Positions 17,674 through 60,001 of a DNA stretch of 64,000 nt are shown in pieces. Position 1 is the stretch's first letter; every line of letters begins with the position of its first letter. Source of the DNA: Sphaerodactylus townsendi (lineage: Eukaryota); the NCBI RefSeq assembly GCF_021028975.2, contig NC_059434.1, positions 74,834,001 through 74,898,000 on the forward strand. The letters are read 5' to 3'. The notes beneath the pieces were generated by a model. The model saw nothing but the letters and a program-made list of their open reading frames with translations, was not told the DNA's origin and did not search any database. The translations under genes were made by a program, and so were the position numbers.

Positions 17674-17888
17674 TCATGACAGACCAAACTTTTCATAGTG
17701 CTCCAGTGCAAACAGGAACATTTCTCGGAGAACATCTTGGCTACTATATCTTGGAAGAATGAGGTTTCGATTACAGGTGCAGGCTACAGGATACCACTTG
17801 TCTGGATCTTCTTTTCTGGCATCCGAAATTGTAAATTTGAACGTTTCCATCCCTAGACCTGGAATGCAGTTCGTTCCTGTAAGAAAAG
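17674..17888 (-). CDS. HERC5: HERC5-like exon 24 (HECT C-lobe, catalytic Cys codon 17773-17775, stop)
   Basis: AFLTG...YPVACTCNRNLILPRY...EKFGLS*; Phe at position -4 as in HECT ligases. Confidence 0.95.
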
Positions 17889-26800: not shown

Positions 26801-29800
26801 GCATTGGAAGGCGATGGCATATCACCTCTGATCATCTATGCCTATTCGCAAGTCAGTGATACAGCCCAGTTCATAGTAAAAACCGAAACGTGTGTCCTCA
26901 GACTATCCATCTGGTGCGTTAGAGCAAAGTCCTCTTGGATGAGTCTCACCCTCGTGCAAGTGTGTAGAGGAAACCGAGCCCAGCAAGGGTCTTCTCAGGA
27001 GCAAACCCGGAGAAGAACTCGCATATTTCCACATCCACAAGATTGGGCATAGTCAACTGCAACGCAGCTCTGGAAGCAGTTCCCACTGAGCACAGTAAGG
27101 CTTTCCCAAACGAAGCGTGCCTAGAACTGCAGATCTCTGTTTCGTGTACTCCGCAGAAAGCCCGCCGGTTTTGCACGGCTTGACTCCCACTGCGGCTCTG
27201 CGGCGCCGACCAGGAACCCCAGAGCAGCTCCAGCAGCAGTTCAGGGACTGTTTTGCTTGCCGGAGCAGGAAATATTCTGCTTGCACAACCGGGTTGCCTC
27301 CCTCCGTCCTTGCAGCGGCTGCGGCGGATCATGCTGGCCCTTCCCGGCCTCCGCCTCCTGGCTCGCGCTTGTTGGTGGCGGGCAAACCGGCAGACGGCTC
27401 TAGCTGCCCGGGCTCTCTGCGTCGCCGCCCAGGACGGGCCGGCTGGGTCAGGACAGCAGCAGCAGCGGCCGCCCTTGTCGCCCGCCCTGCTGGACATCCT
27501 GGTGTGCCCTTTGTCCAAGAAGCCGCTCAGGTCAGCCTCGCCTTCCTCTCCGTCGCGCCCTGCTAGCCCCTGTTCTCTGCTCCTAACTTTGCAGGCCCCC
27601 CCCCCCCCCCGTGCTTCGTGCACCTCTGATTTCTGCTTGCATGCAAATCCTGCCTTACGTGTCTCAGATGGCTCCGAAGGGAGAAATCTTAGGTCTACTC
27701 AGAAGTAACACCATTTTATTCAGCGGGGTTACAATCCTTTTTAGGATTGCATCGTAAATCCGCCTCTTCCTTTCCCCCCCCCCCCCCCTCCCTCCGCCGG
27801 TACTCCATTATGGCCCTTTTTGTTCCCTTTGCTATTTTCCCCCCCCCCCCCCCCCTTTGCAACCGCCACCCTCTTTTCTTTCCCTTCCAGGGACTACTTT
27901 CAGTTTGCGAGCTCTCTCTCCCCCCCCCCCCCTTCGCGTTCGGATTTCTGGGATATATCACATTTACTCCAAAGGGGAGCATGTCATTTGTTTCTTCCTA
28001 AAGCTATGCATGCTGCAATTTTGATTTACTGTATTGGCAAAGGCTTGCAGGGCTGAAATTAACTATTATGAGTTTTGCGGGTTATATGGCTGTGGTCAGG
28101 TAGTTTTTGTTCCCAAAGTTTTGCCCGCACTTTAGGAGTGAAAACTACCAGACCACGTCCACATAGCCCGGAAAACCCACAACAATGGTACACTTTGGAG
28201 CCATCTTGGTGCATCAGTGCCAGGCTATAAAGTGGAACCTATGCCAGCGGAGGAGGCAAACAGCACCCTGGCACAGTGGATGATGGTCTGGAGGTGTTCA
28301 TGCAAGTGGAGTCTGCTTCCCCATCAGGCTTTGAGTCGGGGAACGTCCCCTTCCCCAGCCATAGACTTACACCACCAGAAAGTGTGGTTGGTGTAAGCCT
28401 GCTTGGCCTATGAGGCCATTTGGGCAGCAGGAGGAGGGTTTTTGAATCTCACTCCTTCCTGTTCTGCCCGAGGCCCCTCCACCACCCCAGTCTGGATTGG
28501 GCTGCTAGTATGATTGGCACCCAGTGAGATGTACAACAGAGTGATTAGAACCCAGCTCTCTTACATCCAGTGCCCTTGCTCTCCCATGGTAGATGCACGA
28601 TATACCTAGGCAACTGTGATAAGGGTCATGAAAAATGACATGCTGCAGTGGTCTTCCTCCAAACTGTGCCGGTTAACATTTTGGGGCTCCTCAGCCATTT
28701 GTCAAGAGCTTCGTGATGAGCAACTGAACAATGGCAAGCGAGCTTCCTTGACAGACTGCTGATGTTTCCCTGTGGTGCGCAGGCACACAAGTGGGATGTG
28801 CGTGCCCCCACTAGAACATCCCATTTGCATGTGGCACTGGTGAAGCCAGAACTGGTTTGTGTGACTGAAACATTCCAGCAGTTGTCTAAGGATTCCTCAG
28901 CAGGCAACTGGAAAACTCCCTGGAGGTGAACAGTTTGAATAAAACATAGGCATGCCAGACAAGGGGACCATCAACAGAGTTCTCACATCCTGGTTTTTCT
29001 CAATTTGCCCAGCTGCTGAGGCCCATTAATGGTGCTCTTCTACAGGAACAGATCATAGCCAGGGTTAGATTGGTCTGGACCTATGGGGGGCCTTTTCTGC
29101 TGCTGACTCCAAACTGTGGTGTGGTGGTTAAGAGCAATGGACTCTAATCTGGAGAACCAGGTTCGATTCCCCACTCATCCACATGAGTGACGAACTCTTA
29201 TCTGGTCAACTGAATCTGTTTTCCCCTACTCCTACACATGAAGCCTGCTGAGTGACCTTGGGCTATTCACAGTTCTGTAAGAACTCTCTCAGCCTCACAA
29301 GGTGTCCATTGGGGGGAGGGGAAAGGAAGGAAGTGTTAAGCCGCTTTGAGACTCCACACATTAGACAAAAGTGGAGTATAAATCTAGCTCTTCTTCTTTA
29401 GAGGCAAGACTGGCACTACCCATCAAGGCCTTCTGGACAGTCTTTTAAGGACCTACAGAGATCATTTGATTTAGATAAAGGCTGAGGGATCCGTTCCCTA
29501 CTGATTTGAGAGCTGTTGCCAAGTGTGGTTTTATGAACCCTTTTCATGGGGTGGAGTTGTATTTACATATGACTTGGTGAGGAAGCAGTTAAGAACTCAA
29601 CTAAAAATTGCTACTTGTTGCTTTAAATCAGTAAATTCAATTTATGAAAACACGTAACACTGCTTTGTACTGAAAGACCACTGGAGCTTGCATGGTGTAC
29701 TGTAGCAGTAAAAAGTGGTGGACTCGAATCTGGAGAACTGGGTTCAATTCCCCACTCCTACACATGAAGCCTGCTGAGTGACCTTGGACTAATCACTGTT

Positions 29801-32372
29801 CTCTCAGAACTCTCTCAGCCCAGCATACCTCACAAGAGGTCTGTTGTGGGGAGAGGAAGGGAAGGAATTTATAAGCCGCTTTGAGAATCATTAAAGGTGG
29901 AGAAAAATGGGATATAAATCCAAACTGTCTCCATACTCTCGATACTGGCTGCTTTGACTGGCAGCTGCTGTCCAGGTAGAGAAAGGTTAAGAACAAGCCA
30001 GCTGGATCAGACCAGAGTCCATCTAGTCCAGCTCTCTGCTACTCGCAGTGGCCCACCAGGTGCCTTTGGGAGCTCACATGCAGGATGTGAAAGCAATGGC
30101 CTTCTGTGGCTGTTGCTCCCGAGCACCTGGACTGTTCAGGCATTTGCAATCTCAGATCAAAGAGGATCAAGATTGGTAGCCATAGATCGACTTCTCCTCC
30201 ATAAATCTGTCCAAGCCCCTTAGTGGCCATCACCACCTCCTGTGGCAGCATATTCCCAACACCAATCACATGTTGCGTGAAGAAGTGTTTCCTTTTATTA
30301 GTCCTAATTCTTCCCCCCAGCATTTTCAATGAATGCCCCCTGGTTCTAGTATTGTGAGAAAGAGAGAAGAATTTCTCTCTGTCAACATTTTCTACCCCAT
30401 GCATAATTTTATAGACTTCAATCATATCCCCCCTCAAACGTCTCCTCTCCAAACTAAAGAGCCCCAAACGCTGCAGCCTCTCCTCATAAGGAAGGTGCTC
30501 CAGTCCCTCAATCATCCTCGTTGCCCTTCTCTGCACTTTTTCTATCTCTTCGATATCCTTTTCAAAGGATATTTCTTTCTTCAGGTTTCTCATCTCCTGT
30601 TGCCTGATCCTTTTAAGGGAAGGTCCCAGGGATTGATCTTCTGCACGCAAAGCACAGGCTTCGCCACTAAGACACCAATGCTTTTTGTATTTACTAGGTA
30701 TGAAGAATCCACCAACGAATTAATTAACGAAGAGCTGGGCATTGCCTATCCCATTATTGATGGCATTCCTAATATGATACCACAGGCAGCAAGGATGATT
30801 GCCAAGGAGAACCGAGAAAAGGAACCCGAACAGACCTAGACGACAGTCCTCTTAAAAAAGGGACAGTGAAAGATACACGGAGGCAGAAAAATGTTCCCGT
30901 CACTTCCTACTATGACTGTACTCGTTCCACTGTTGTCGTTAGCTGGTCTGTTTTATTCAGCCAGTGTGGATGAAAACTTTCCCCAGGGATGCACAAGCAC
31001 ATCCAGCCTCTGTTTCTACAGTCTGCTGCTTCCCATTACAATCCCCGTTTACGTGTTTTTCCATCTCTGGACCTGGATGGGCCTGACACTCTTCCGCCAC
31101 AACTAGGATGCGGAGGGTCTGTTAGCAAAGAATATGGTAGCAGTCCACAACATGGTATCTTACAGATTCTAAAGTAAGGGACCACATAGTGAATTAAATA
31201 GATCTCCACAAAGGTGCCTCCCAAGTCTATAGAAGATCTGCATGCCTTTTAAGGAAAGCAACTTCCCAGTTCAACACTGGTAGCACCAAACCATATTTGT
31301 GAGAACCATTAAGCCTAGAAGAAACTGTGGGGTTGCAAAATGAAGTCCTGTGACGTATCACATCATGTGGACAAGACTGCCTTCATGGGCTTCACTTTCT
31401 CTCCCTTGTGTGCATGGGGGCGAGGGCTGAGATTGCCCCAAGCCAACCCTAACGGAGCCGACAAGTGAACACATTCAAACCATCTATCGAGTTCATTAAA
31501 AATGCTCTGTGTAAAGCTTGACAGACAGCTTTCTCCCTTACACGTTCTTGAAATCAGGATTTGCATACCTTCTCCTTCGCCAGCAACGCACAGAAGAGCA
31601 GTCTTTCATGCAGGGATTTTGTAAAGTGAGAAGTTGTCTTTTGTGCACTAGATATTGAGCTCTCAGGTTACAGATGGTTTAAAACCAGGTGTAGCAGTAA
31701 GGAGGCATACTCTCTTGCATTTCGCTACCCTGTAGGGTTGCAGATATCCGGCTGTTTGAATTCATGTATGCAAAAGGATTGGAATTCACACACAGTGCTG
31801 TGGAAGTGATCAGCACTGGATGAAAATGTTACCGAATAGCAAACTTTTAGTTTTTAAATAAAACCACCTTTAAACCCAGCAGTTTTCCACAATGACTGTA
31901 CTTGGGAACATTTGGCTGACTGCTGACACCATCTGGGAAATCATGAAGGACCAAAGGAGTCCAGGTGCAATCCACTGGGTGCTGAGAGAACCAGATCTCT
32001 GCCCCCAGTTTAACTGAGGTTAATACCACTTAAATCCTGTTCAGGCGAAGTTGCCACTGACTTGGCCCATTGATTACAACGGGTTTAAATGCAGCGGGCA
32101 CAAATCATGTTGGGGCTCTTGTGCTTTTCCACAGTTAAACACCAAAGACATGTCAATGCAGCTTTATCAAGTGTAACTGATGTCTGAGACAGTTCTTAGA
32201 CTTAAAGCTCTGCTGCTTCTAACGATAAGCTGGAAGTTGTGACATTTATTTATTTCTAATATATGTGCATAACCTTTCTTCCAGACAACTGGGACCTGCT
32301 CATGTCAGGGACATTGTGGGACAACCCTCCAAAATTAAGAGAGAGAGAGAGAGAGAGTGAAAGTTTGAGAGC

Positions 32373-32404
<32 letters not shown>

Positions 32405-38400: not shown

Positions 38401-41400
38401 CCCCTCTTCGGGGACGTCCGTGCGGGCCGGTCAAAAGCGTCTTTCGAGGTCAGCGCCAACGCCAACCCAGCCGTTTCCGCTGCCATGCAGAAACGGCCTA
38501 TATGTTTTGCCAAGAGGCGTCTTCAGGAAAATCTGTTTTGCCAAGAGGCGGTCTTCAGGAAAATCTGTGGTGATTCTCCAAAAAGAGCATATTATTGCAC
38601 TGATTGAGCAGGGCGCCGCATCTGTAGAAAGATTTCCCCAGTTAAAACTCGAACTGCGCAGATTTGGTGTTTTTTTTAAAAGATATTCTATTTTTAAATT
38701 TTCCTTTGGACCAGCTAGGCTGCTTATAAAACTGGATCAGGCTTGTTTAGCATTTGGTGGAGACGTGCCTTTTAATGCAAAAATTGGGAAACGCTATTTA
38801 ACTCTGCACATTAGGTAGAATTTCACTGTTGTGTCTTACCTCTGTGCAGACTTCAGGGTTTTTTGCAATCTTATCTGAGAAAAGGAGCACAGCAGACATA
38901 TTTATACCTGCAGCTTCCTGGGATGTTCTGAAATGTTCATCTTGACTGGAAAGATAAGAGTGGGTTATACATTGGAACTTCTTGTTCACCGAGTAAATAC
39001 AAAAATATTTGATCAAATGTGGGTGCAAAGAGAACTAACTGCATAATACACACCTTGGACCTGGTTCTCTCAATTTTATTTCACATTATATAGGCAGGGA
39101 ATTTCTTTTTATACCAGTTTTTAATGTCTCCTCCATTCCCAGATTACTAGAGTTTTATTTTATTTATTTTGAACACTTCTATGTTGCCTTTCCAACCAAT
39201 TTCAGGGTTTTCAAGGCAGTAAACATTAAAACAGAATTAAAATGCAAACACATCCTGTCTGAACACAATCACATCCAAACAAGAAACATAAACCACATCG
39301 GCTCTACAATGGCATTTGTCAGATCTCAGAAGGTAAGCAAAGTCAGCCCTAGTTAGTCCTTGGCCAGGAATTAACCACTTGCAAGGGGAGGAAATAGCAA
39401 ACCACCTCTGTTCACGCCCTGAAAAGCCTACCTGGACTATACCTTGATGGCATTTCCACCACATTTAAAAACATTTTATGTGTTTATAATGTAAACACAA
39501 AATATAAACACGTGAAGTTTGTTGCTGAGTTGACTTGTAATTCACAAGAATACTTGCCATGATGCGTAAAAGCGTGGAATGGGCTGAATATCTTCAAGGT
39601 GGCAACACACTCTTGTTGAGAAGCTTCCGTTATTTTGATACAGATGAGAGAGAATCAGCTATGAATGTCCCTGTTGATACAAAAAGAGAAAAAAGAGTCA
39701 CTGAGGCTTCAAGTTGTTGCCTGGAGAACAGAACTGGACTTGCCGCTGAGGTAAAACAGATAAAGGAAAGCCCTTTGTGCAAACTGAGCAGTCTCTCCGT
39801 GACACAGTTGCTTATTGCCCAACCAATGGCTTGTGAGAGAAAAGAAAATACAACCACGGTGGCTATCTTTCCTGTTCTCTATTCATGCAATCAACTATCT
39901 TATATTTATCCCACTCTTCCATCAAGGAGCTCATCACTCTTCTTGTCACCATTTTATTCTTACAAAAATTCCAAGGCCATCTGGTGAGCATCAAAGCTGT
40001 GTGGAGCCAAGGTTTTCTCAGCCCTACACTGACAGTTTAGGGAAGTATAGCAGAAAAGGACTGGATCATGATGTAAAGCAAGCAGAAGATACTGCCTTGT
40101 TGAGCAAACAAGGGTAGAAATCCAGGCCAATAGTACATCTGTTTTGTCTTCTGCACTGAAGGGTTTTGGTGCTTTGGGTGAATGAGGGGGTGTCATAAGG
40201 GAAAGTGGTAGACACTGCCAACAAATCCAGAATTTGCTCCCCAAAGTACAGGAGACTGAGAACTGGATTTCATGCAGAACAGAGCATCCATCTTGAATTG
40301 CAACAAATGCAGATTTGAAATTAAGTAAATTGGTATGTTGAGTAGTGCTCCATAGCCTAGCAACAGAAGACCATAAGTCTCCAAGACACATTTGTTGAGT
40401 GTGTGTTGAGTGCTTTAAAAAACAATAAAACCTGTAGCCACTTGGTTCAGCTAGACCTTATTCAAGTACTGAAGAAGGGATATATGGAATAGAGATTTGA
40501 ATGGGCATCTCTCAATAAGAAATAGTGTAATTCTTATGCAGATTCTACTCAAAGGCAGATTTGGTTGTTCTGGATTTCAGTTTTGTAACATCTACGCTTG
40601 AACTCAATTGTAAGATGTAGGTGGGGGGGGGGGGTATTATAAACTTGTGCCTTGAAGTAATAAAGCTTTAGTGACAATGGCTGCATGTTGATAAGATTCT
40701 GACTCCTCCGCTGGCTGCACAGATTTCTAAACCCAGCCACATTAGATTGGCTCCCCACTTACCTTGGTACATTGCCAGCTCCACTTTGGCGTCCGGGCGA
40801 AAGCCTCCATGACTTATGACCCGCGGGAATTCTTGCTCCCCACTCAGCGTTTGCCGTTAAAGACTACTTGTGAGGCGGAAAGAATGCCGGAGTTTTACGG
40901 TACGAAGCAATGAAGAAGCGTTTCATTGGCTTTAATACGGAGTTATTAAAGATCATGGAGGAGAAATGGGGCCTCCATTTTCATTGGCTGGAAGACGAGG
41001 TCGTTTTGAAGCAGAGCTCGGATGTCTGCGTCATCAGAAATGCTGGAAGCTTTGGAAGCATTTGTTTGAGCGTCTGCACCTGCTGGCGTGGCAGAATGAA
41101 ATCGGTTGCTTGCCGCCACTGCGATCTGCGTCTGCTCTGCAGCACCTCGCTGAACGCTAATAGATCGTAAACTAAATTCATTGTGAATGGGTACGCTTAA
41201 TGAACCATGAACAAAGGGAACAATAGCGTCACGTGCGTTTATTACTGCGTCTCAATGCCTGCATTGTAATAGAACCATCCGGCGATGATTCTACGCAATC
41301 TTCATGTGGCTTCATTCGGCGCACTTTATTGTTGGCAGCCCTCCCCAAACAGAATGGAGGATTCTTTCCCCTGATTGGCCGGAAAGCTCTGCGCCCCAGC

Positions 41401-42979
41401 GAATCAACCGCGCGTCATCTTCCGGGTTCCCCACCACCCCACCACCCCGCGCCAAGCGCGGGGTTTGGGAAAATGTTGCTGTTTTTCAAAGAGCAGATTT
41501 GACGCGCGCCAGGGAGGCGGAAGAGCGGCAATTTCTGCGCAACTTCTTTTAATGGAAGGCTGGGGATATGGGGAGCATACTGGAACCACGATCTGCAGCT
41601 AACCCCGCGGCTAATGGTGAGTGGGAAGCGACCCATTGCTTAATCTTACTTCTCTTGCCCAATCCAGCTCATGATGCACACACAGACAAGGACTGGGGGA
41701 TGGCTTGGCTGAACAATCTTTGCAGCATCACGGGATGAATATACATAGCCAAGTCGTAGATTACTAGACTGGGCCTCAACTTCTGATCATGGATTCCCTG
41801 AAAAGCTACATGCCACTATGCACAGACTGAATATTATGTTGTTGCTTTTGAATTTAGTATTATTGGCCAAATGTGGCAGGGACACGGATTCTTTAAAAAC
41901 ATCAGGTGTGCAATAGTTGTAGAGGAGATACGTACTGTATTTTGTTAGAATCCAAATCAGAAACCCATTTATCTATCTCTTCCTCTTCTATTCTGGCAAG
42001 TGTCTGGTTTAAACTGGCATATGAATTCTGGGGAAAAAAGACACAACACACACAAAATGATCCCAGAACTTTTTTGAGATCCCTCCACTGGAGATTTGAA
42101 ACCCAAAGTGGATATGTCTCCTTGCATTTTGTTGATGTTTCCCCCGATCCCTGATAATGCAGACATTTATGGCATTAAAGCACACCAAAAGAAAAAATGA
42201 CTTTTACAATCAAATTATAAGGCAAACTATGGACCATTCCAGTTTGTAGCACAATAAATACCTAGCAGTTATTTGAGTGATGTTCAATGACCAGATGGCT
42301 TGCGTCAAATGACACTTATAGTGAAGGTTTTCCCAATGTCCCCAGCCAGATATGCCCCTCCCTGGTCCCTCTGCGCTGTGGGCCAGATCAGGATCAGGCC
42401 TTTGTGGCATTTTTAAATGTCCAAGCTCAGCCCTAAAATGGCATCAGTTTTCACAAGTCAGACCTGTAAATGCCACAACATCTAATTTGATCCTAAGGCA
42501 GAGAAGCAAAGCTGTAGCCATTTCCCCACCGCCCAGAGCCAGTGGTGGGATCCAAAAATTTTAGTGACAGGTTCCCATGGTGGTGGGATTCAAACTGTGG
42601 TGTAGTGCCAATGGGGCTGGGCGGGGCATGACGGGAAGATGGCCGGGCATTTCACCAGGGTGGGGCATTCACCAGAGAAGACTTTATTGGCAGGGACGCG
42701 GCAGCTGCGCAGCCGATCGCCCAAGATTGGAAGCGAATACGCGGAAGCGAAGGCGCCACGCACACCGGTGCACCTCATGCTAGACTGCTTCAAGTTCTGC
42801 ACGCTACTGCTGAGAGGAGGGGCGTAACTAAGGCAAAAATCACGACAAAATCGCAAGTTCGCCGCCACCGCCCACCGACGCACAAATAATTAGTAACCTA
42901 CTCTCGGGAACCTGTAAGAACCTGCTGGATCCCACCTCTGCCCAGAGCCCTTCGGGGGAGGGGCAGTATATAAGACTAA

Positions 42980-43010
<31 letters not shown>

Positions 43011-46000
43011 ATATAAAGCCTGCAATAAATATAAATATAAAGCCTGCAATAATTTAGAACCCTTACTGACCTTTTTCTTCAGAAAAAGCAAAATACTTTG
43101 GTTATCTCCAGCAATGACTTTTATTTTTTCCTCTGAAGCGCTCCCTTCTGTGACAGACAATAAAGCAAAGGATTATTCAAGGAGTCCTGTCTCAGCTCTA
43201 GTGACCTGGTGAAGTGGGATCTGGCACTTGGAACCTTATGCTTATGACACATCTTTAAAGTATTCTTCTGTTGTTTTTGCTGTGATAGGTAAACATGGTT
43301 ATTCAGGCAGAACTTATAACATGCTTTAACTGGTGTTCCATCAGTGATCCCTCCTCATGCCTTATGTTGTTATTGTTATTTTTAGGTAAATGTATCTTAT
43401 TGTGTTGTGTGTATATAAGTTATAAGCAGTGGTGGGATCCAAAAATTTTAGTAACAGGTTCCCATGGTGGTGGGATTCAAACTGTGGTGTAGCGCCAATG
43501 GAGCTGGGCGGGGCACAACGGGGGTGTGGCCAGGCATTCTGGGGGTGGGGTGTTCCTGGGCGGGGCTGTGGCAAGGACGCAGCTACTGCGCCGGTCCTTG
43601 GGTGGGAAACGAATGCACGCAGGCGCAGGCTGCCACGCACGCCGGTGCACCTCCTGCTAGACTGCTTCAAGTTCTGCACTCTACTGCTGAGAGGAGGGGC
43701 GTAACTAAGGCAAAAATCACGTGGCAAAATCACCAATTAGTAACTCCCTCTCGGCACACACAAATAATTAGTAACCTACTCTCGGGAACCTGTGAGAACC
43801 TGCTGGATCCCACCTAGTGTTTTAATTACATGTTCTTGTTTCAATCGTCTTAACATATGTTTTTATTATGTGTATTTTTAATCTGTTAGCCATCTTGGTG
43901 GTCCTGATCAGAGCAGAAAGGTGGGGTATACATTTTATAAATAAATATAAAAGTTTAACCTACTAAGAATATAACAGAAAGAGAATTCAGGCTCTGTGGC
44001 TGGTATAAGCTTTGTCAGCTATGTAATGATGGAAATGCGTTGTTTTAAATTGAGAATGTTCCTTGCCCAAACAAGATTGAATTTATTTATTTATTATTTG
44101 GTTTTATATACCGCCCTATCCCAAGAGGGCTCAGGGCGGTGTACAACACAAGCTTCACCACAAAAACAACCAGACCCAACCTCAAAAACAGGTGGCAAAG
44201 GAGATCTTAAATTACAAAAAATTGTGGCAAAATTGATCTTAAATTACTTTCACACTAGTTCTGTTCCCAATGGAGCAGCTGTGGGGCAGAGAATCCTTTT
44301 CTACCCCAGTCCCAAAGCCCTTTCTAGCCTTGCAACTCTATGTAAATGGTTTGACTGAAGTGAAGTCAAGTCTTCATTTGCGGTCTATAACAATGCAACT
44401 CTACAATACAACAAAAACATCTACAACAAAACAGCAAATGCAAATCTCACTCCAGTATTCCAGCACTATCCATATATGTATCATTATACAATGTAAGCAT
44501 ACTAAACAGCACACAAATACTAAATAGAAGTTTGACTGTATTATTATCTGCCTTGAGTCTCAATGAGAATAGTGGGCTATGAATAAAGCACACAAATAAA
44601 TGCTGATTTTTAAATTACAGATGGACATTAAATTCACAATGTCTTTGATTTGCAGCCAAACATGAAGCACATCTTATAAAGATCATAAAAATAATTGATC
44701 CTGTTTGGATTTCCTACCCTTCTCAGCAAAGTCAACAGGAAGGGGAATCAACTGGTCACACATTCTTCCATTGCCAAGCTGTCCTTGAGATCCAGAACCA
44801 AATGCATAGACTTTCCATAGATCTTCAACATAGACAAGTGTATGCCATCTGTTTATAGGAGAAAAGCAAATAATGCGTATTCAGGATCTTTAGCTCAACC
44901 TGGCCCTTACAAGCTGAAAAACTGCAAACCATCAAAGAAGGAAATTATTTTGGTATCATTCCATCATTTATTTACATTTGTACAATAACTATTTTTAGCA
45001 CTGCAATTAATTCCTGATTTAAAACCAAAATCTCATGTTTTCCCACTAAAGGAGCAGCAGTGGCGCAGGAGGTTAAGAGCTCGTGCATCTAATCTGGAGG
45101 AACCGGGTTTGACTCTCCGCTCTATCGCCTGAGCTGTGGAGGCTTATCTGGGGAATTCAGATTAGCCTGTACACTCCCATGCATGCCAGCTGGGTGACCT
45201 TGGGCTAGTCACAGCTTCTCGGAGCTCTCTCAGCCCCACCTACCTCACAGGGTGTTTGTTGTGAGGGGGGAAAGGCAAGGAGATTGTAAGCCCCTTTGAG
45301 TCTCCTACAGGAGAGAAAGGGGATATAAATTCAAACTCTTCTTCTTCTTCCAATGAGAATCAGTGCAGTGTAGAGGCTAAGAGCGTCCAACTAATATTTG
45401 GGCTAAGTGACCTTAACCTACCAGGACAAAGGGAGCTCTTGCCTTCCGGAGAGAAGACAAGAGGGAGACACTGAAGTGTAAAACACAAGTTCACTGTTGA
45501 ATAAATAACATTAATGGCTGGACACTTGGCTTAATGTTCTAAACCAGAGGTCTGCAACCTGCGGCTCGCCAGATGTTCATGGACTACAATTCCCATCAGC
45601 CCCTGCCAGCATGGCCAATTGTAGTCCATGAACATCTGGAGAACCGCAGGTTGCAGACCCCTGTTCTAAACTTTATGGTGCCCAAACAGAGGGGGAAGTT
45701 GATTCAATCACAGCTTCCAGACAATGCCGAATGTAAATGAAGGTGGTCTTGGGAGAGGTTAGTCAGAAATTAGAAAACAAAGATTAGTATTCCTGGTAGG
45801 AACTCTTGATGAAATCTTGGATAATATATCCTCTGTTTCGTGGCTCTTCTCTGACCAACAGAACCAATAATGCAAATATCAGGGGGTGAGATCTACAAGA
45901 TTCCTGGTTTGTGATGGATTTGGTAGCCTTGAATGCATCAAAGAAAACTCAGTGAACATTCTAAAAAGTGACAGTTGGTACTGTAGCTCTCTGATTGAAA

Positions 46001-47473
46001 GTTTAATACTGTAATACTGTAAACTGTGCTTGTTATTGGTAACCAAATTGTAACCAAAACGATGAACTGTAAATGTGTGTGTATTTCTCTCTCAGTATAA
46101 GCAAAGTTCTTTTGTTTATGATTTCTGAGGTAAAAAGGCTGGTCTTTACCAAGATAACTGTTCTTATTTAAAGTGGCACACAAGCTACATTCTGCTCGTT
46201 ATTCTGCTGACAGGATTACATATATATGTAAGGTCAACAGGTACACCTGCTGACCTTCAGTTTCTACCTGACAGTGGCCCTTTCCACACTACCAAAATAA
46301 AATCTCTTGAAGCAGAAAATAAAATGTGACCTCTCAAGAGTTTTGCAGTTTTTAGCCCAAAAAGTTTTATGTCCAGTCTCAATACATTTTATTTGCATCC
46401 TGTTCCCTAGCAATTCTTTATCTGAAAATGTTTTGAAAATATTTTCACTTGCTGTGTATAGGTCTCCCTATGCCTCCCAGACTTCCTCATCTGAGCCATT
46501 TTCGGAGCTTGAGCCGGCTGTCTCGCACTGTATTTTTGTCAGTTCCTTTTTTAAATTTTGGGAGGGTCCCGTCTCCTTAGCTTCAAAGACATTACCCCTA
46601 GAGAATCACAGCACGAGGTTTTGAAGCTCTGTAGCACTGGATCTGCAGTTCTTTTTAAAAAGGGAATGACCACAAAATGGTGATCAGGAATCATTTTGAG
46701 GGGGTGAGTGTGAACAAACGGGGGGGTTGAAAATGTTCTGCAAATGCTACTACGGCCCTGGCCCTGTGACTGATCCCCATATCTCCACTACCCAAAAATT
46801 AATTAAAAGGGCTTCTCTCACGTACCCTGCCTGTATTATGCACTGGTACAAATCTGGAGAGAGAAACCTTTTCTCACCCATTTTATCCTCTTTTCAACTT
46901 GGCAAAATCATCTCTCTGACATAAAACATTTGGAAGGTGGGTGGCTTTCTTACCTCCCACAGGCCACCTCAGATACTCGAACACCAAACAGCTCTGCCAC
47001 AAAACGTGGAAACAGCTCGTTGCGCGTGGAGTTGTGGCCAAGCTGGCCATAGCAGCCAGCTCCAAAAGTGCAAACCAGTCCATCCTTAACAAGAAAGAGA
47101 CAAATCGACCCGACACACTCAAAGAGCAAATATGCCATACCATGCAACACTGATAATTTCCCCCAGAGTTATTCCTTTAGTTTCACAACAACCCTGTGAG
47201 GTATATGAGACTTTAACAAAGATTGGCTGATGGGAACCAAAAGACCAGTCATGGCTGTGTGGGGATTCAAATCTGGGATCCTAGTCTGACTATACCAACC
47301 AGCTCACGTTATATAACTGAGGAAATAAAACTTTGAAAGCTTATGGGTGACCAAGACTCTCTCTCTCTCTGTGTGTGTGTGTGTGTTTGTGTGTATAACT
47401 ATATATCTTTATCTATCTATCTATCTGTCTGTCTGTCGGTCTGTCGGTCTGTCGGTCTGTCTATCTATCTCTA

Positions 47474-47508
<35 letters not shown>

Positions 47509-50500
47509 ATACGTCTATCTATATATGTCTCTCTCTCTGTATCTATCTATATCTATCTATACCTATATCTATATATACAACCTTCTTCTCTTAAATATAT
47601 ACACAACCTTCTTCTCTTAAATATGGAGAACAATGTTACTGCAGAGTACTTAAGGATCTCCTACATTATTTACCTTTTTTTGCTTCTCAAATTTCCACAG
47701 GCATAGCTCACACACTTCTAATTCTATTTTCATAAGCATAAGATTTAAACACAATGCGCAATTAACCTGCAGAATTCACTGGTTCAGTAATGCTGTAATA
47801 CTTGGCTTCTAAAATTTACTAGATAAGCTCCCAGAGGAGGGAGAGAAAGAATAGGCATATAAGAACATGCCCTATTAAAATATATAAAGTGTTTCGTTAA
47901 ATGACAAAAACAACCTTTGTAAGAACGGCAGTGTGCTCTCCTCCGCATGAAATGAACACTGTCTTCTTATGCTCCAATGCTTTCACATATGTGGGGGAAT
48001 GCTTATCTGAAAAGGAGATAAAAAGGGAAACGGAGCCACCACAAGAGGGTGCTGATTGATCTTTGAAAAAGGAATAACAAAGTATTTCTTATCCCAGCTA
48101 GAAATGATTCAGATCTGCTAGATATGGGAAGATGGAAGTGTCTGCATCTGATGAGGATTAACTCCTTGCAGAATCCCAACCCCTTGGGCAAGCCTTGCTG
48201 TGAGCTTGCTTCTGCCTGGGTGCAACAGGTGTGTTACCTGTCACTGCCATGTGCCTGGTACATCGCTGATCCCCAGCCTGTTTATTGGTTCTCCTGTACC
48301 ACGAGCTGCGGACTGTTATCTGACTACGCCTTGCCTGCCACCTGCCTTGACCCATTGGACTGTTATCGGACTGTGCTTTGCCTGCTGCCCGTTTGGCACT
48401 GCAAGGCCGGACCTGGCCATGCCCTGCCTGCCAGCAGCACACCAACTCTGCTCACCTTCTGTATGTCCAAGGCCCAGCTGCCCAAAGGCATTCTTTCCCC
48501 AGGAGTAGACTGATCCAGACAGAGAGACTGCCATACTGTGATATCCTCCAGCTGCGATCCGGGCCAGCGGAATGCCGTCCAGTGCCTGCACCCGCCGTGG
48601 TACCCAGGCAGGCCTCATCTTTCCTCCCAAGCCAAGTTGACCGTAGTCATTTTGACCCCAGCTGAAGAGCTGTCCTCCTTAATACAACATACAAAAGGGG
48701 AGTCGGGAGTTGCAGACACTGAGATCACAGTCAAGCTGCAATATTAACTAGAAGCCCCCTCAAAATCTATCTGCTTCACATTCATATCCTAACATCCTGA
48801 CTTCTCCATAACGTTGCCTGTATGAATGACATATCATACCTTTTGACAGGGCCATGGAATGATAGTTGCCACATGCAATTTGAACCATTTGTTTATCTCC
48901 CAATCCTTTCAGCAGTCTATTCAAAGAGAAGAATGCACACAAGAGATGTCTAACAGTAACATTCCTTGCAAAAGATTTGGGCAGGTCATTCAAGAGTACT
49001 ATGTTCTGTGCTTTGAAATCTGCAATCCACAATATAGTTCTATGTTTTTTACTCTGTCGGGGCAATCCACAATATAGTTCTATGTTTTTTACTCTGTCGG
49101 GGCAATCCACAATATAGTTCTATGTTTTTTACTCTGTCGGGGCAGGAAGAAGAGTTTGGATTTATAACCCCCCCCCCCCCACTTCTCTTCTGTAAGGAGA
49201 CTCAAAGGAGCTTACAATCTCCTTTCCCTCCCCACTGCCACAACAATCACCCTGTGAGGTGGGTGGGGCTGAGAGAGCTCCGAAGAGCTGTGACTTGTCC
49301 AAAGTCACCCAGGTGGCGTGTGCTGGAGTGCACAGGCGAATCTAGTTCCCCAGATAAGCCTCCACAGCTCAGGTGGCAGAACAGGGAATCCAGTTCTCCA
49401 TATTAGAGTGAACCTGCTCTTAACCACTACACTACACTGGCTCTCAAGTAGGATCCTCTCGAGTAGGATGTGGATTCACAAAGACCAGCTGGTTGTGGAT
49501 TGAGAGATGCAGGATTTTCCTATGGCTATCCCACACTGAAGTGGTCATGCCATTAGAACCATGATGCCTTTCTGATAACATTTTTGCATGACTACTTGGA
49601 AGTTTTCTTTGGGGGTGGGAGGAACCAGAGGCATTTACATCTTGCATTCTCCTATAAAGTGAACTTATGGAAGAAACACAACTCCAGTGTTCCTATTCTT
49701 CATCTATTATTTTAGACCCTCCCGTAGTAAATAGTGTTTTTTAAGAACCTTAGCAGTTATGTCTCACCTTGGTTCTGACTTAACGTTCTGGAAGTCAACA
49801 CTGTGTTCAGAAAGTTTTCCTTCTGACGAGAGAATGAGTAGATGAGAGGTTTCGCAGTCCACTGAATTCACCTTGACATTCTTTTCCAGCTTAATGCGCC
49901 CTGCAAGATCAACCAAGAGAGAAGCTGCGATGCTGTTTAGAGACAAAAACATACCAATAGCAGGTTTGGGAATGTTCAACAATTGCACTGGGCAAGAGCA
50001 GAAACTGACTTGGTGTGGAATTATTGCATGGTCATCATTTTTCAAAAGGAGGCTGCTTCTAGCCCTCAAGGCTGCCAGGGCAGAAGAGCATGTGAATTGT
50101 GTCTACATGGTAAAATCTCAGGAACTACTAGGACAGTGATGGCGAACCTATGGCACGGGTGCCAGAGGTGGCACTCGGAGCCCTCTCTGTGGGCACGTGC
50201 ACACAGAGTTCATCATGTCCATCTACTGGACTCTGTGGGCACACACACACACACACATCTAGGCTGACCTGGGCCACTGAGCAGGGAGGACTTGGCTGGT
50301 GGGCCTGGTGCCTGTGCTCCGGGTGGCTGCTGCCCCGGGGGGGGGGTGTGTGTGTGCAGAGGAGGCATAGATGCTAGAGAGGCACAGAGTTGTGCGTGCG
50401 GGACTTGCTGGAGGCTAGAGCAGGCTGGCCCCTGCTCGAGCGGGTGGGGTGGAGGAAGAGGGAGCCAATCGTTTTTTCCTAAACTAAAACCTCAGCATTC

Positions 50501-53268
50501 TGGTTAAATTGCCGGGTTGGCACTTTGCGAGAAATAAGTGGGGTTTGGGTTGCAATTTGGGCACTCGGTCTCAAAAAGGTTCGCCATCCCTGTACTAGGA
50601 GAAGGACTCCTCAGAAAGACTACCAGAGGGAATCTTCAAGAGCCAGTGTAGTATAGTGGTTAAAGTTTCAGATTAGGATCTGGAAGACTCAGGTTCAGAT
50701 CCCCATTCTGCACTGGAAACTTGCTGAGTGACTTCAGCCCCATCCGCACATGCAGAATAATGCACTTTCAATCCACTTTCACAATTGTTTGAAAGTGGAT
50801 TTTGCTAGTCCGCACAGCTGCAAGGAACATTGAAAGTGGATTGAAAGTGCTTTTTTTTCCTGCATGTGCGGAAGGGGCTTTTGAGCCACTCACATGCTTT
50901 CAGTTTAATTTTCTTCACAGGGTTGTCGTAAGGATAATATATAAGAGGAGAATAATGTAAGCCACTTTTGCCTGAGGAGAATGGCAGGGTATGAATGAAG
51001 TAATTAATAAATAATTGAATATTTTAGGACCCAGTTTATCTCATCTATCTGTTAAGCGTTGGAAGGTTGGGGAAGGGAAGGATCTCAGCAACATATAAGG
51101 CCATATAGTCCACCCTCCAAAGCAGCCATTTTCTCCAAGAGAACTGATCTCTGTAGAGCAGTGGTGGCGAACCTATGGCACGAGTGCCAGAGGTGGCACT
51201 CGGAGCCCTTTCTGTCAGCACGCACACACAGAGTTCATCACCCCACACACACACACACATCTAGGCTGGCCTGGGCCACTGGCACAATGCCCCACAGCAA
51301 GCAGGGAGGACTTGGCTGGCGAGTCTGGTGCCTGTGCTCTGGGTGGCTGTTGCCCGAGGGGGGGGGGGCAGAGGAGGTGGAGATGCTAGAGAGGTGCAGA
51401 GCAGTGCGTGTGGGACTTGCTGGAGGCTAGAGCAGGCTGGCCCCTGCTTGAGCAGGTGGGGCGGAGGCAGAGGGGTGGGGTGGAGGCACTGGAGCAGCAC
51501 AAGGTAGAGCGGCGGGTGCACACAGGACTAAAACGTCAGTATTCAGGTTAAATTGCCATGTTGGCACTTTGCGATGAATAAGTGGGTTTTGGGTTGCAAT
51601 TTGGGCACTCGGTCTCGAAAAGGTTCGCCATCACTGCTGTAGAGTGAAATATCCAGGGCTTTCCTGTACGCTGGTAACCCTATTCTCCATACAAAGAGCA
51701 GCCAGTATGTCGATAGAGATAGTGATTCATAATATCAGGTAAATTAAGAAAGAATATTTCTTGCTTCAGCTTTGTGAGTAAAGTGCAGTTAAGTCGCTTC
51801 TGACTGATGGAGACTCTATGAACCAATACTCCCCAAAACTGTCTAATATTAACAACCGTGCTCAAGTCTTACAAACTGAGGGCTGTGGTTTCATTTCCAT
51901 TGCTCCTATCAGAGACCGCAATGCTCAATGAAGGAGTAAAAGGTGTTCTCTTTCCTTGGTCAAAATCCCTCCTCTATTTTCTCTTCACAACAGCCCTGTG
52001 CTGTAGGTTATGCTCTGTGTGTGTGACAGAGAAAGACAGACAGAGACCGGCTAGTCAAAGGTCACCCAGGGAGCTTCATGACTGAGCGGAGACTTGAACC
52101 TGAGTTTTTTTTCCATTTCAGACCTAACCACACCAGCTCTCAGTGTTAAGAATATGAATTTCAGAAGATGTGTGGACTTTGTGCGCCTGTGCTCACCTGA
52201 ATTTTGTTCACCTGAACTTTGTTGACTGTTTATTAAAATAGGCTGGGCGAAAAACCACTAGCCTGCTCACCACTGTGGAGAAATTCTTCCTGGGGAAGTT
52301 GCATAATCATGGGGACACCACCCCTCTCTTCTGTGCCTACCAAAGGAGCTTCTTTGATTGATGGTCTCTCCCTGTAATCTGGCTACTATTCACCCCTCAG
52401 TAGCCATATGTCCATCAGGTGCTAAACTTAGAGACTGACATGTCTCCACCATCACCTCTTCTAGCAAAAGTTCTGGGTCCCCACACAGAGTTCATGTTGG
52501 TGGCAGCTAGCTACCCTCCAGCAAACCCAGCACTGGAAATCTGGAAAACACCACTCTAGCCTCAATACTCGGTGATCCAAGATGACCAATCACCTTCCTA
52601 CAGCAAGAAGTTCACCAACAAGCGTACTGAATCTGGTACTGGGAAGACACGGGAGCCCTCTTGGTGGAAAAGGTTATAGCCTTTGTATCAGGATGCTGAG
52701 GCTCAGAGCTAGAGCACTATCTAGGCCAGCCCAAGGATGTCCAATTCTGGTGGTCTGGATATTTATGGACTACAATCCCCACCAGCCCCTGCCAGCTGAT
52801 GAAAATCATAGTCCATGAACAACTGAAGGACCACAGTTGGACACCCCTGATCTAGGTGATGATGTGAAAGCCCACCACCAAAATTCCACAAAGCCTTGCC
52901 AAGTTTGGCAGATCAGGGATCTCATGCGTCCAGCACGCCCACCCACAGCCACATCCCATCATGTTCAGGGGTGCTTACTCTCAGGTTGCACCCTTTCAGT
53001 GGTCGGTGATGGGGGATTGGCAGCGCCAACAGGTCTACTCACTGGGTTTCCTAGGGTGGCTCTGGGGGTCGCCTCCTTCCTCTGCGCCCACCCAAACGAC
53101 CACCGTCCCGTCGTTCTTCACCGCAGACAGGCAGCCGCGCTTGCAGCTGATCTGGCGGAGGGTGCCCAGGTCCTCCTGGAAGAACGGGGCCTCGGGGAAG
53201 AAGAGGAGCGACGGAGGCAAGGGGGCACCACTGATCGCCCCGTGGCAGGGGGCGCGCCGCCTGGGCAT
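17674..53268 (-). CDS. HERC5: HERC5-like small HERC E3 ligase, copy 1 (RCC1-like domain + HECT); 24 exons, ~1008 aa; exon 10 disrupted in this assembly
   Basis: 24 exons assembled by hand with compatible splice phases, 3027 nt in total. N-terminal exons resemble human HERC5 (RIKLEKNVKVNSVDCETSHLLILSSEGK; RWHTLVYVEDLWKVYAFGSGSQGQLGNG; IAGDNQSILL). HECT motifs FIGEPGIDDGGPSQEFF, PFPLALFKK, FLTG and PVACTC are present. Exact orthology (HERC5 vs another small HERC) needs a phylogeny. Confidence 0.8.
18433..18810 (+). mobile_element. CR1 LINE 3' fragment, specific to copy 1
   Basis: Same family as 29988; (TTCTTATG)n tail; tgcatt duplicated at both ends; empty site in the paralog near 59463. Confidence 0.9.
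19269..19368 (-). CDS. HERC5: HERC5-like exon 23 (HECT)
   Basis: NARYNGYEKSDETIRNFWAVFHDLPEEKKKDFL. Confidence 0.94.
20200..21170 (+). mobile_element. Degraded RTE/BovB-like LINE 3' fragment interrupted by a SINE (paralogous copy ~61300-62305)
   Basis: Remnants such as DSFEMWCW, YFGHILRRQESLEKIIMLG and RKQLDGT. Confidence 0.7.
21599..21782 (-). CDS. HERC5: HERC5-like exon 22 (HECT)
   Basis: KEYVDAYVNYIFNDSVKEQF...FLPTEL...YNWEQLEK. Confidence 0.94.
22056..22285. mobile_element. Tc1/mariner (Tigger/pogo-like) MITE, specific to copy 1
   Basis: CCGTGTTTCCCC...GGGGAAACGG termini; TA TSD; empty site in the paralog near 63037. Confidence 0.8.
22433..22723. mobile_element. GC-rich hAT-like element shared by both paralogs (also ~63185-63735)
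   Basis: CAGAGGC...GCCACTG termini; 8-bp TSD CCCCTAGC in both copies. Confidence 0.7.
22932..23014 (-). CDS. HERC5: HERC5-like exon 21 (HECT; GC donor)
   Basis: VELKENGANIPVTKYNR; the frame requires AG|GCAAG. Confidence 0.85.
23275..23341 (-). CDS. HERC5: HERC5-like exon 20 (HECT)
   Basis: CLQAVLDEQYDDILESLMLDFT; donor gtaaga. Confidence 0.9.
23814..23998 (+). mobile_element. SPIN/URR1-like hAT MITE
   Basis: CAGTGGTTCTCAACCTTCCTAATGC...GAGAACCGCTG termini; 8-bp TSD GACTAGCC. Confidence 0.85.
24534..24700 (-). CDS. HERC5: HERC5-like exon 19 (HECT)
   Basis: FLIGNIFGMALYN...FPFPLALFKK...TLEDLKELSP. Confidence 0.94.
25843..26157 (+). mobile_element. tRNA-derived squamate SINE (Squam3-like); other copies ~20491-20778, 29115-29398, 29690-29930, 36825-37075, 45052-45350, 49147-49445(-), 58331-58646, 60121-60362(-), 61601-61930
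   Basis: A/B-box-like head (TGGCGTAGGAGG...GGTTTGATTCCC), conserved body and (TTC)n tail; many copies in the window. Confidence 0.85.
26202..26345 (-). CDS. HERC5: HERC5-like exon 18 (HECT)
   Basis: VCFIGEPGIDDGGPSQEFF...SHLIWF. Confidence 0.93.
27050..27620. promoter_or_regulatory. CpG island / PYURF-PIGY promoter
   Basis: CpG-dense; ETS-like CCGGAG/CAGGAA motifs upstream of the PYURF ATG. Confidence 0.75.
27331..27530 (+). CDS. PYURF: PYURF (PreY, mitochondrial TRM112-like protein) exon 1
   Basis: Arg/Ala/Leu-rich transit-like N-terminus, then LLDILVCPLSKKPLR; donor AG|gtcagc; CpG island. Confidence 0.95.
29988..30561 (-). mobile_element. CR1 LINE, 5'-truncated (ORF2 C-terminus + 3'UTR), in the PYURF intron
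   Basis: [46 protein letters not shown], the typical CR1 ORF2 end. Confidence 0.93.
30698..30839 (+). CDS. PYURF: PYURF exon 2 (113 aa in total)
   Basis: YEESTNELINEELGIAYPIIDGIPNMIPQAARM; acceptor tttactag|. Confidence 0.96.
30891..31106 (+). CDS. PIGY: PIGY, GPI-GlcNAc transferase subunit Y, 71 aa; second cistron
   Basis: MFPSLPTMTVLVPLLSLAGLFYSASVDENFPQGCTSTSSLCFYSLLLPITIPVYVFFHLWTWMGLTLFRHN; starts 51 nt after the PYURF stop in the same exon. Confidence 0.98.
   Translation: MFPSLPTMTVLVPLLSLAGLFYSASVDENFPQGCTSTSSLCFYSLLLPITIPVYVFFHLWTWMGLTLFRHN
32340..32404. repeat. (GA)n/(TG)n microsatellite
   Basis: Directly visible. Confidence 0.95.
32815..32985. mobile_element. Penelope-like inverted-repeat fragment (related pieces ~1525-1715, 15470-15560, 28070-28185)
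   Basis: GTGGTTTCCGGGCTGTATGGC...GCCATACAGCCCGGAAACCAC inverted arms; GACGTTTCGCC motif. Confidence 0.6.
33565..33675 (-). CDS. HERC5: HERC5-like exon 17 (start of HECT)
   Basis: PNIELIVRRQYLVQDT (L.VRR..LV.D motif); donor gtaag. Confidence 0.88.
33757..33861 (-). CDS. HERC5: HERC5-like exon 16
   Basis: VPCILDMEAKILLHNLD, corresponding to the family PFIFD..AK..L..D motif; alternative acceptor at 33849. Confidence 0.8.
34632..34670 (-). CDS. HERC5: HERC5-like exon 15 (39-nt micro-exon, VVRIFQSKRLEVK)
   Basis: aaacag|...AAG|gtaagg; phase 0-0 and open, but little motif support. Confidence 0.6.
35263..35370 (-). CDS. HERC5: HERC5-like exon 14
   Basis: VNSRTGFKIQERNFYVPEV; donor gtaagt. Confidence 0.88.
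37143..37315 (-). CDS. HERC5: HERC5-like exon 13
   Basis: ESLWSSLDIPFFKDLVDIYQ...LQVLYE; phases 1 to 0. Confidence 0.88.
37548..37731 (-). CDS. HERC5: HERC5-like exon 12
   Basis: SPEALRVFLILP motif; donor gtaagg. Confidence 0.9.
38022..38498. mobile_element. GC-rich TIR element (GGCCGTTTC termini)
   Basis: Inverted termini ggccgtttccgca / tgcagaaacggcc; interior looks scrambled. Confidence 0.6.
38840..38945 (-). CDS. HERC5: HERC5-like exon 11
   Basis: QDEHFRTSQEAAGINMSAVLLFSDKIAKNPEVCTE; tttccag|...|gtaaga. Confidence 0.85.
39611..39670 (-). pseudogene. HERC5: HERC5-like exon 10, disrupted (in-frame TGA, indels); real lesion or consensus error
   Basis: 60-nt phase 2-2 exon at the expected position; fragments of the family IFSS..C.NGSFL motif are spread over different frames; the exon-9 frame reads D-I-H-S-stop. 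Confidence 0.65.
40745..41625. promoter_or_regulatory. Orphan CpG-rich, probably bidirectional promoter in HERC intron 9
   Basis: Four ATTGG/CCAAT boxes (~40746, 40925, 40983, 41375); ETS motifs CCGGAA/TTCCGG/GCGGAAG; E2F-like GCGCGCCA; outward-facing consensus donors at 40762 (-) and 41617 (+). Confidence 0.55.
41936..42027 (-). CDS. HERC5: HERC5-like exon 9
   Basis: NSYASLNQTLARIEEEEIDKWVSD; ttttccccag|...|gtacgt. Confidence 0.88.
43071..43147 (-). CDS. HERC5: HERC5-like exon 8
   Basis: EGSASEEKIKVIAGDNQSILLFLKKK; donor gtcagt. Confidence 0.88.
44718..44848 (-). CDS. HERC5: HERC5-like exon 7
   Basis: WHTLVYVEDLWKVYAFGSGSQGQLGNGRMCDQLIPLPV; cag|...|gtagg. Confidence 0.92.
46954..47084 (-). 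CDS. HERC5: HERC5-like exon 6
   Basis: DGLVCTFGAGCYGQLGHNSTRNELFPRFVAELFGVRVSEVACGR; donor gtaag. Confidence 0.93.
47357..47580. repeat. Compound microsatellite (TC)n(TG)n(TCTA/TCTG)n
   Basis: Directly visible. Confidence 0.95.
47915..48006 (-). CDS. HERC5: HERC5-like exon 5
   Basis: DKHSPTYVKALEHKKTVFISCGGEHTAVLTK; ttttcag|...|gttgt. Confidence 0.9.
48456..48677 (-). CDS. HERC5: HERC5-like exon 4 (RCC1 repeats)
   Basis: GQLFSWGQNDYGQLGLG...[34 protein letters not shown]. Confidence 0.93.
48840..48916 (-). CDS. HERC5: HERC5-like exon 3 (RCC1 repeat)
   Basis: LLKGLGDKQMVQIACGNYHSMALSKG; tag|...|gtatg. Confidence 0.92.
49022..49144. repeat. 40-bp tandem repeat x3
   Basis: GCAATCCACAATATAGTTCTATGTTTTTTACTCTGTCGGG repeated exactly. 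Confidence 0.95.
49768..49900 (-). CDS. HERC5: HERC5-like exon 2
   Basis: cttgcag|GG...AG|gtgag; RIKLEKNVKVNSVDCETSHLLILSSEGK. Confidence 0.9.
53043..53268 (-). CDS. HERC5: HERC5-like exon 1 (MPRRRAPCHG...PRKP), phase 1 end
   Basis: ATG in a CpG island; SLLFFP and RQISC resemble the HERC5 N-terminus; donor CCA|GTGAGT. Confidence 0.8.
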
Positions 53269-53543: not shown

Positions 53544-53841
53544 GGAAATGGAAACTGAAAATAAGCGCGCTGCTGTCTAGTGTGCAAAACAGCTGTGAAT
53601 ATACATAAATGCCGAAAGTTACACTTACTGGAGTTACGCTTTCGGCATTTATATATATTCGTAGCTGTTTTAGACAATAGGCAACCGTGCACTTCTTTTC
53701 ACTTTTCAATCCACTTAGTAAATCAGTAGTTTCTAAGTTTGTGTGTTTGTGTTCTTAAGCAGCAGGACTGGCGGTGTTTTTTTGTGTATTGTTCATTGCT
53801 ATTTCGTACGCTTCAGTGTGATAAGTTGAAATGGAAACTGA
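53544..53841. promoter_or_regulatory. ISRE/IRF element cluster upstream of HERC5-like exon 1
   Basis: GGAAATGGAAACTGAAAAT (53544-53562); GAAAAGTGAAAAG on the minus strand (~53695-53707); second GAAATGGAAACTGA (53828-53841). Confidence 0.7.
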
Positions 53842-59901: not shown

Positions 59902-60001
59902 CAAGAAAATCCTTCTTTTTTTCTTCTGGAAGGTCATGGAACACGGCCCAAAAATTCTTGATTGTTTCATCTGACTTTTCATAGCCATCATATAGAGCAT
60001 T
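59902..60001 (-). CDS. Copy 2 penultimate exon (equivalent of exon 23)
   Basis: NALYDGYEKSDETIKNFWAVFHDLPEEKKKDFL; same length and splice sites as copy 1. Confidence 0.93.

Follow-up and report, generated by a model that had tools for sequence, protein, structure and literature searches.

A gecko gene of probable HERC7 type and the likely chimeric origin of placental HERC5

The window analysed here is a 64,000-nucleotide stretch of the Sphaerodactylus townsendi genome (NC_059434.1, positions 74,834,001–74,898,000). Together with flanks of 300 kb, it holds a tandem array of four small HERC genes, all on the same strand, in the order HERC6, HERC7 copy B, HERC7 copy A and HERC3 (the HERC7 assignment, a likely one, is taken up below). 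The gene under study, copy A, is a 23-exon gene on the minus strand at 17674–53268. A first-pass annotation had placed a gene and its motifs in this interval, and all 11 of the motifs sought do translate from the minus strand within it, with 22 exons readable. Copy B, also on the minus strand, extends over window-equivalent positions 90123–58006 with the full 23 exons and a 994-amino-acid frame; its last exons (20–23) occupy 58006–64000 of the window and the gene continues to window-equivalent 90123. On the same strand, HERC6 lies at window-equivalent 123575–94044 and HERC3, which adjoins copy A, begins at window-equivalent −7352 and has 23 coding exons with the same intron phases as the HERC7 copies. 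The gecko HERC4 gene is on a different contig. The same gene order is found in fused models of lizard, tortoise, bird, snake, sawfish and desman, and HERC6 is also upstream of HERC7 on one strand in those of lizard, tortoise and sawfish. The first-pass annotation included neither the tandem copy B, whose last exons are in the window, nor the nested PYURF/PIGY gene described below.

The spliced model of copy A joins the 22 readable exons into a 972-amino-acid open frame with canonical acceptors and GT donors, apart from one GC donor that is also present in copy B. Exons 1–9 (53268–53043, 49900–49768, 48916–48840, 48677–48456, 48006–47915, 47084–46954, 44848–44718, 43147–43071 and 42027–41936; together 41936–53268) encode a basic leader, an RCC1-like domain (RLD) with degenerate first blades and the start of the spacer. 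The spacer proper (33565–38945) is encoded by exons 11–16 (38945–38840, 37731–37548, 37315–37143, 35370–35263, 33849–33757 and 33675–33565), and the HECT domain (17674–26345) by exons 17–23 (26345–26202, 24700–24534, 23341–23275, 23014–22932, 21782–21599, 19368–19269 and 17888–17674). In the last of these, the codon at 17775–17773 specifies a Cys that falls on the Cys position conserved across all 18 rows displayed. Model and alignment show the small-HERC architecture of one RLD, a spacer and a C-terminal HECT domain with a catalytic-position Cys. Pfam RCC1/RLD and HECT matches were obtained on the copy-B protein and on a platypus protein. At 44700–44718, copy B's exon-7 donor reads AT in copy A and the model uses an in-frame GT 18 bases upstream; this alternative donor would shorten the exon by six codons, and the difference from copy B could be real or an assembly error.

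Exon 10 of copy A (39610–39670, minus strand) is scrambled in the assembly, with frameshifts and a stop. Contigs were available from four public short-read runs, all of one study and possibly the assembly's own source. None of the four sets covers 39568–39655 as assembled. In three of them, a contig that matches the copy-A flank exactly leads on to an undamaged exon of the exon-10 type, which differs from copy B by one letter; its depth is similar to that of the copy-B-type contig. Because the copy-A flank runs into an intact exon 10, copy A is likely to be whole, with about 992 amino acids, and exon 10 is likely to be intact in the animal; a decaying gene, which the scrambled exon suggests, was rejected on these contigs. 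The trees reported below used the 972-amino-acid model, which lacks exon 10. More widely, the assembled letters of 39558–39661, where the intact exon 10 seems to be hidden, are unsupported by contigs of all four runs, and there is a second contig-unsupported patch near 40710–41300. Gap-free contig records confirm a 12-base deletion in exon 9. Domain by domain, copies A and B share 89, 77 and 91% identity, and they are sisters in all trees (100/99), which argues for a recent duplication; these identities, and the like depth of both exon-10 flanks, led us to reject a single locus assembled twice.

A second gene is nested antisense within intron 16 of copy A. PYURF, on the plus strand, has two exons (27331–27530 and 30698–30839) that give a spliced model of 113 amino acids with Trm112p matches, and behind its stop, in the same nested gene, lies a 71-amino-acid PIGY reading frame (30891–31106, plus strand) with a PIG-Y match that is the only one over the cut-off in the gecko genome. 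The PYURF/PIGY exons are missing from intron 16 of copy B, and the nesting of PYURF in a HERC7 intron was seen in this one gecko. No more than a hint of nesting elsewhere comes from gene models: of 11 sauropsid ones that are N-terminal only, six stop at exon 16, and two C-terminal ones start at exon 17. The automatic model P0001 starts inside intron 16 and splits the host gene. In the PYURF intron, adjoining its exon 2, a minus-strand fragment at 30039–30719 may correspond to the end of a CR1-type LINE reverse transcriptase.

Upstream of copy A, an ISRE-like element at 53545–53560, 277 bases from the start codon, is the sole triple-GAAA match in the window (0.02 expected). A second ISRE-like element lies at 53828–53839; its pattern matches twice in the window, both times in the copy A promoter (0.22 expected; 4 of 100 shuffles reach two). 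In the copy B promoter, at about 90300–90600 window-equivalent, the same ISRE patterns are unmatched and the matching element looks eroded, and the sequence hints that the two copies may be induced differently.

Three homologue searches, a search of 50% representatives and three cluster look-ups gave 420 proteins, many of which are unrelated RCC1-repeat proteins or isoforms. The 92-row alignment consists of 82 small HERCs, each named or classified as such and picked for taxon spread, five gecko models and five trimmed or split records; the spacer tree has 73 rows (19 dropped), and the mixture-model trees and approximately unbiased (AU) tests used a 35-row subset. Group labels were assigned in this analysis, and the rows contain no human sequence, with marmoset as the primate HERC5. 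By raw identity, exons 1–9 of copy A are closest to HERC5 (49–52% to three placental proteins, against 37–40% to gecko HERC3/4 and 31–35% to HERC6), whereas exons 17–23 are 44–45% identical to gecko HERC3/4, 39–41% to HERC5 and 36–39% to HERC6. From this contrast, the first-pass annotation had argued that the gecko gene is a mosaic of a HERC5-type N terminus and a HERC3/4-type spacer and HECT. The contrast is borne out, as is the statement that exons 1–9 follow HERC5, but the gecko gene is not itself mosaic: separate trees of the RLD, spacer and HECT, the check suggested at that stage, place its protein in one clade in all three. We refer to this as the HERC7 clade. It has support of 99/96 in the 92-row RLD tree (with HERC5 and four chimeric rows inside), 100/100 in the 92-row HECT tree (where its 32 rows form one clade) and 100/100 in the 73-row spacer tree (with three chimeric rows inside), and the mixture-model trees agree with the full trees. 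Its members come from lizards, snakes, turtles, crocodile, birds, platypus, caecilian, lungfish, ray-finned fishes and sharks, in roughly species order.

Descent of the spacer and HECT from HERC3 or HERC4 does not survive these trees, in which the two domains never nest in either group; uniting the squamate HECT with HERC3 is rejected (p-AU 9e-84), as is uniting the sauropsid HECTs with vertebrate HERC3/4 (p-AU 2e-7). The branches of HERC3/4 are short, so the raw closeness of the copy A HECT to them reflects retained ancestry, and the C-terminal part is 49–65% identical to HERC7-clade proteins of shark, lungfish, caecilian, platypus and tortoise. HERC3 and HERC4 have the same domain order as the gecko protein and, among the four human-type paralogues, the highest raw identity in the spacer and HECT, but they form separate, slowly evolving clades with intact first RCC1 blades and are not the source of its C-terminal part, which by these sequence comparisons is not HERC3/4-type by descent. 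The HERC7 HECT clade is sister to HERC6 in the best tree (94/85 to 98/98); a position sister to HERC3 is not rejected (p-AU 0.12). Copy A itself is outside the HERC6 clade: a separate gecko HERC6 gene lies upstream, and the two clades are distinct in the RLD, HECT and spacer trees.

This clade is likely to be the HERC7 of Li et al., an assignment made by taxon range and not by accession match. Li et al. 2022 (J Immunol) is reportedly the paper that defined HERC7. The accessible text of PMC10003058 describes HERC7 as a small HERC outside HERC3/4/5/6 and lists it for elephant shark, teleosts, coelacanth, green anole and chicken, which is the taxon range of the gecko clade; for anole it gives HERC5/6 in addition to HERC7, and for chicken HERC7 alone. 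In our trees, the anole has one row in each of the HERC7 and HERC6 clades, and all four bird rows besides HERC3 fall in the HERC7 clade. Salmon HERC7 sits in the HERC5/6 locus (PMC12234341, excerpt). HERC7 has been described as non-mammalian and lost in mammals (PMC10003058, accessible text), whereas a complete mammalian protein of HERC7 type, platypus XP_028923070.1 (P0171), falls within the HERC7 clade in each of the three trees, and exons 1–9 survive in placental HERC5 as set out below; this gecko also differs from the published picture in having two tandem copies. The platypus protein is annotated as HERC5-like and has a long, compositionally odd branch, and its pairing with HERC5 in exons 2–9 has support of just 47/40. 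The matches listed, which were cut short or filtered by length and cannot show absence, included neither HERC7 nor HERC5 from a marsupial, and no HERC6 from a bird. Searches of the PDB returned UVR8, large HERCs, E6AP and other HECTs, with no small HERC among the matches listed (for one search, the best 60 of 105), and a protein atlas search returned generic HECT clusters only.

Placental HERC5 changes its position between the trees. In the 92-row RLD tree it lies inside the tetrapod HERC7 clade (99/97), with HERC6 as a separate clade (100/99), and its exons 2–9 are within HERC7 at 100/99 under the mixture model; its spacer and HECT are inside therian HERC6 (100/100 in both trees). The union of HERC5 and HERC7 in the HECT is rejected (p-AU 4e-42), as is that of HERC5 and HERC6 in exons 2–9 (p-AU 2e-6 under the mixture model). 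Copy A and placental HERC5 are thus orthologous in the RLD but not in the spacer and HECT. A cumulative score-difference scan, together with block trees, located the breakpoint: all 13 aligned HERC5 rows switch between exon 9 and the start of exon 10, platypus and gecko HERC7 have no switch, and opossum HERC6 is HERC6-like throughout. Platypus HERC7 and HERC5 share an exon-9 motif, which in HERC5 only is followed by a HERC6-type exon 10, and this points to intron 9 as the site of the switch. Among 52 proteins scored, the 7-6-6 pattern is present in 18/18 single-gene HERC5 proteins and absent from the 12 placental and seven marsupial HERC6 proteins, all of which are 6-6-6; the remaining 15 comprise chimeras from rodents or bats and models that are fused or of poor quality. 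Trees and AU tests thereby uphold another part of the first-pass annotation, that the gecko gene is the older, unrecombined form and that mammalian (here placental) HERC5 gained a HERC6-type HECT by recombination. The congruence of the gecko trees does not overturn that idea, since it is the HERC5 proteins whose rows are incongruent. The breakpoint had been put near exons 9–11, close to the switch seen at about intron 9, with the HECT as the exchanged part; the exchange took in the spacer as well.

We therefore read the gecko gene as unrecombined and likely HERC7, and placental HERC5 as a chimera, with exons 1–9 from HERC7 and exons 10–23 from HERC6, likely joined by unequal crossover; we put the probability of this reading at about 0.88. 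If the tandem HERC6 and HERC7 genes mispaired and crossed over near intron 9, the product would have been the order HERC6, a gene with a HERC7 front and HERC6 back, and HERC7. The old HERC7 would then have decayed, with its intronic PYURF/PIGY left in place between HERC5 and HERC3. In sheep and cattle, gene lists give the order HERC3, PYURF, PIGY, HERC5, HERC6 (excerpts of PMC6609385 and PMC10486602), an order and not exon positions; PYURF/PIGY between HERC5 and HERC3 fits a crossover followed by HERC7 loss. The event would have taken place on the therian stem or, with higher probability, on that of placentals. In the trees, the back part of HERC5 groups as sister to placental HERC6 (97/94 for the HECT under the mixture model, 92/90 for the HECT and 96/72 for the spacer), which suggests the placental stem; an earlier, pre-therian origin is not rejected (p-AU 0.076), and later conversion could make the back part look younger.

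The same trees are predicted if HERC5 is a HERC7 gene converted in place, by long gene conversion or repeated exchange from HERC6 over exons 10–23 without duplication and loss, and conversion among small HERCs has been reported for bat and rodent RLDs (PMC7775381, excerpt). We regard this as improbable. The conversion must span 14 exons across the PYURF/PIGY intron, the observed switch is single and sharp, and PYURF should have stayed inside HERC5, whereas the livestock lists put it between HERC5 and HERC3. Still less credible is that HERC5 arose by simple duplication, from HERC6 or from a HERC5/6 ancestor, with an RLD drawn to HERC7 by fast evolution or convergence, as published whole-protein trees (PMC10003058, PMC6002735 and PMC11277259, each in part) and positive selection on the RLD (PMC7775381, excerpt) might suggest. 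The HERC5 RLD branches are short; exon blocks 1–3, 4–6 and 7–9 each make HERC6 monophyletic without HERC5 (SH-aLRT 95–98); HERC5, platypus and reptiles have in common the leader motif, the degenerate blades and the exon-9 motif; and the AU test rejects the grouping at the protein level (2e-6 under the mixture model). Least probable of all is a chimeric origin of the gecko, squamate or sauropsid gene, with an RLD of HERC5 type and a spacer and HECT derived from HERC3 or HERC4; the first-pass annotation had offered the squamate-specific form of this as its alternative. The HECT's raw identity (44–45% to gecko HERC3/4 against 36–41% to HERC5/6) and the HERC3 gene adjoining copy A on the same strand speak for it, but short HERC3/4 branches account for the former, the 100/100 placement of HECT and spacer with shark, ray-finned fish, lungfish, caecilian and platypus and the AU rejections given above refute any origin within sauropsids, and only an event before the shark split is left.

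The HERC7-front, HERC6-back arrangement that we propose for placental HERC5 is also seen elsewhere. Predicted proteins of a newt (P0297, switch near exon 11), of anchovy and shad, both clupeiform (P0264 and P0403), and of coelacanth (P0214, switch near exons 15–16) combine a HERC7-type front with a HERC6-type back, and these joins are apparently independent repeats of the event, as far as the gene models can be trusted. In Myotis bats and hystricognath rodents, HERC5/6 chimeras with a HERC5-type RLD and a HERC6 spacer and HECT have been attributed to unequal crossover with a breakpoint just before the spacer (PMC7775381, excerpt), and in our scan two rodent HERC5/6 chimera rows also switch in exon 9. 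These chimeras have the same polarity and mechanism as proposed here for HERC5 but are younger. The excerpt of PMC7775381 takes HERC5 as their parent, whereas in our reading HERC5 itself arose earlier, through an event of this kind; the gecko gene, unlike all of these, is the unrecombined parent type. A Molossus 'HERC5 isoform' (P0307, 1,383 amino acids) has a HERC5 front and apparently more than one HERC6-type C-terminal block, and may be another HERC5/6 duplicate outside Myotis. In a Heteronotia gecko, three distinct HERC6-named proteins on one contig (P0371, P0374 and P0381) suggest a HERC6 expansion.

These results bear on several published accounts. HERC5 has been dated to 413 million years (PMC6002735, repeated in PMC13128273, both in part); under the chimeric origin, HERC5 as a whole would be far younger. 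Lizard and coelacanth 'HERC5' have been noted to cluster apart and to be possibly HERC6 or a hybrid (PMC6002735, excerpt); placental HERC5 has the same place in the cluster as the gecko gene and is orthologous to it in exons 1–9, but the hybrid is the placental gene and not the lizard 'HERC5'. The accessible parts of PMC11277259, PMC13128273, PMC7544217, PMC8228270 and PMC10617486 keep the older views or do not address the matter. We found no statement of HERC5 as a HERC7/HERC6 chimera or of a platypus HERC7 in a literature coverage that excludes Li et al. 2022, the 2005 HERC papers and figures, so part of this may be known. The gecko gene is probably an ordinary member of a known family, and the chimeric HERC5 origin that it exposes is likely to be unreported.

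If the chimeric origin holds, HERC5 does not go back 413 million years, nor did it arise simply by duplication of HERC6, and HERC7 was not lost from mammals. It would account for the resemblance of human HERC5 and HERC6 in their back parts and for their difference in front, and it means that names assigned automatically ('HERC3', 'HERC4', 'HERC5-like') are misleading for this cluster, as are selection scans and trees of whole proteins. Human HERC5 ISGylates broadly and human HERC6 does not, a property decided by the RLD (PMC3260183 and PMC10831901, excerpts), and the reason for this difference becomes testable with reptile and platypus HERC7 and HERC6 as natural parents. We judge it somewhat better than an even bet that human HERC5 is a young placental invention, made from a substrate- and ribosome-binding HERC7 RLD and an ISG15-competent HERC6 spacer and HECT; that the fusion has recurred in newt, herring-like fishes, coelacanth, bats and rodents, making the cluster a domain-swapping engine of antiviral immunity; and that platypus and reptiles keep both parents.

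HERC7 is an old, likely antiviral, lineage of ubiquitin ligases, and human HERC5 is the main ISG15-tagging enzyme. Fish HERC7 genes are induced by interferon or virus and have ISRE sites; zebrafish HERC7c is reported to transfer ubiquitin, not ISG15, and to lower STING, MAVS and IRF7; and carp HERC7 is reportedly modified by ISG15 (all from the accessible text of PMC10003058). Broad ISG15 ligases are human HERC5 and mouse HERC6 (PMC10831901 and PMC3260183, excerpts), both of which would carry a HERC6-clade HECT if they are like the placentals sampled. As both known broad ISG15 ligases would have a HECT of that clade, we lean towards gecko HERC7 being an interferon-induced HECT E3, in which the RLD would pick substrates and the HECT Cys would transfer ubiquitin, rather than a broad ISG15 ligase; broad ISG15 transfer more likely falls to a HERC6-type HECT. 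An ISG15 role for gecko HERC7 is nonetheless possible, given the modification of the carp protein and an ISG15-like frame in the gecko genome (contig C13, L055:1441–1962, minus strand, in G000) with two ubiquitin-like domains and, at its end, an LRGG-type motif and a short extension. Elsewhere in the genome, at G000:C4:8171500–8186100 (L056 and L057), a 15-kb stretch contains three ubiquitin-domain matches, and the open frame around each is about 500 amino acids long.
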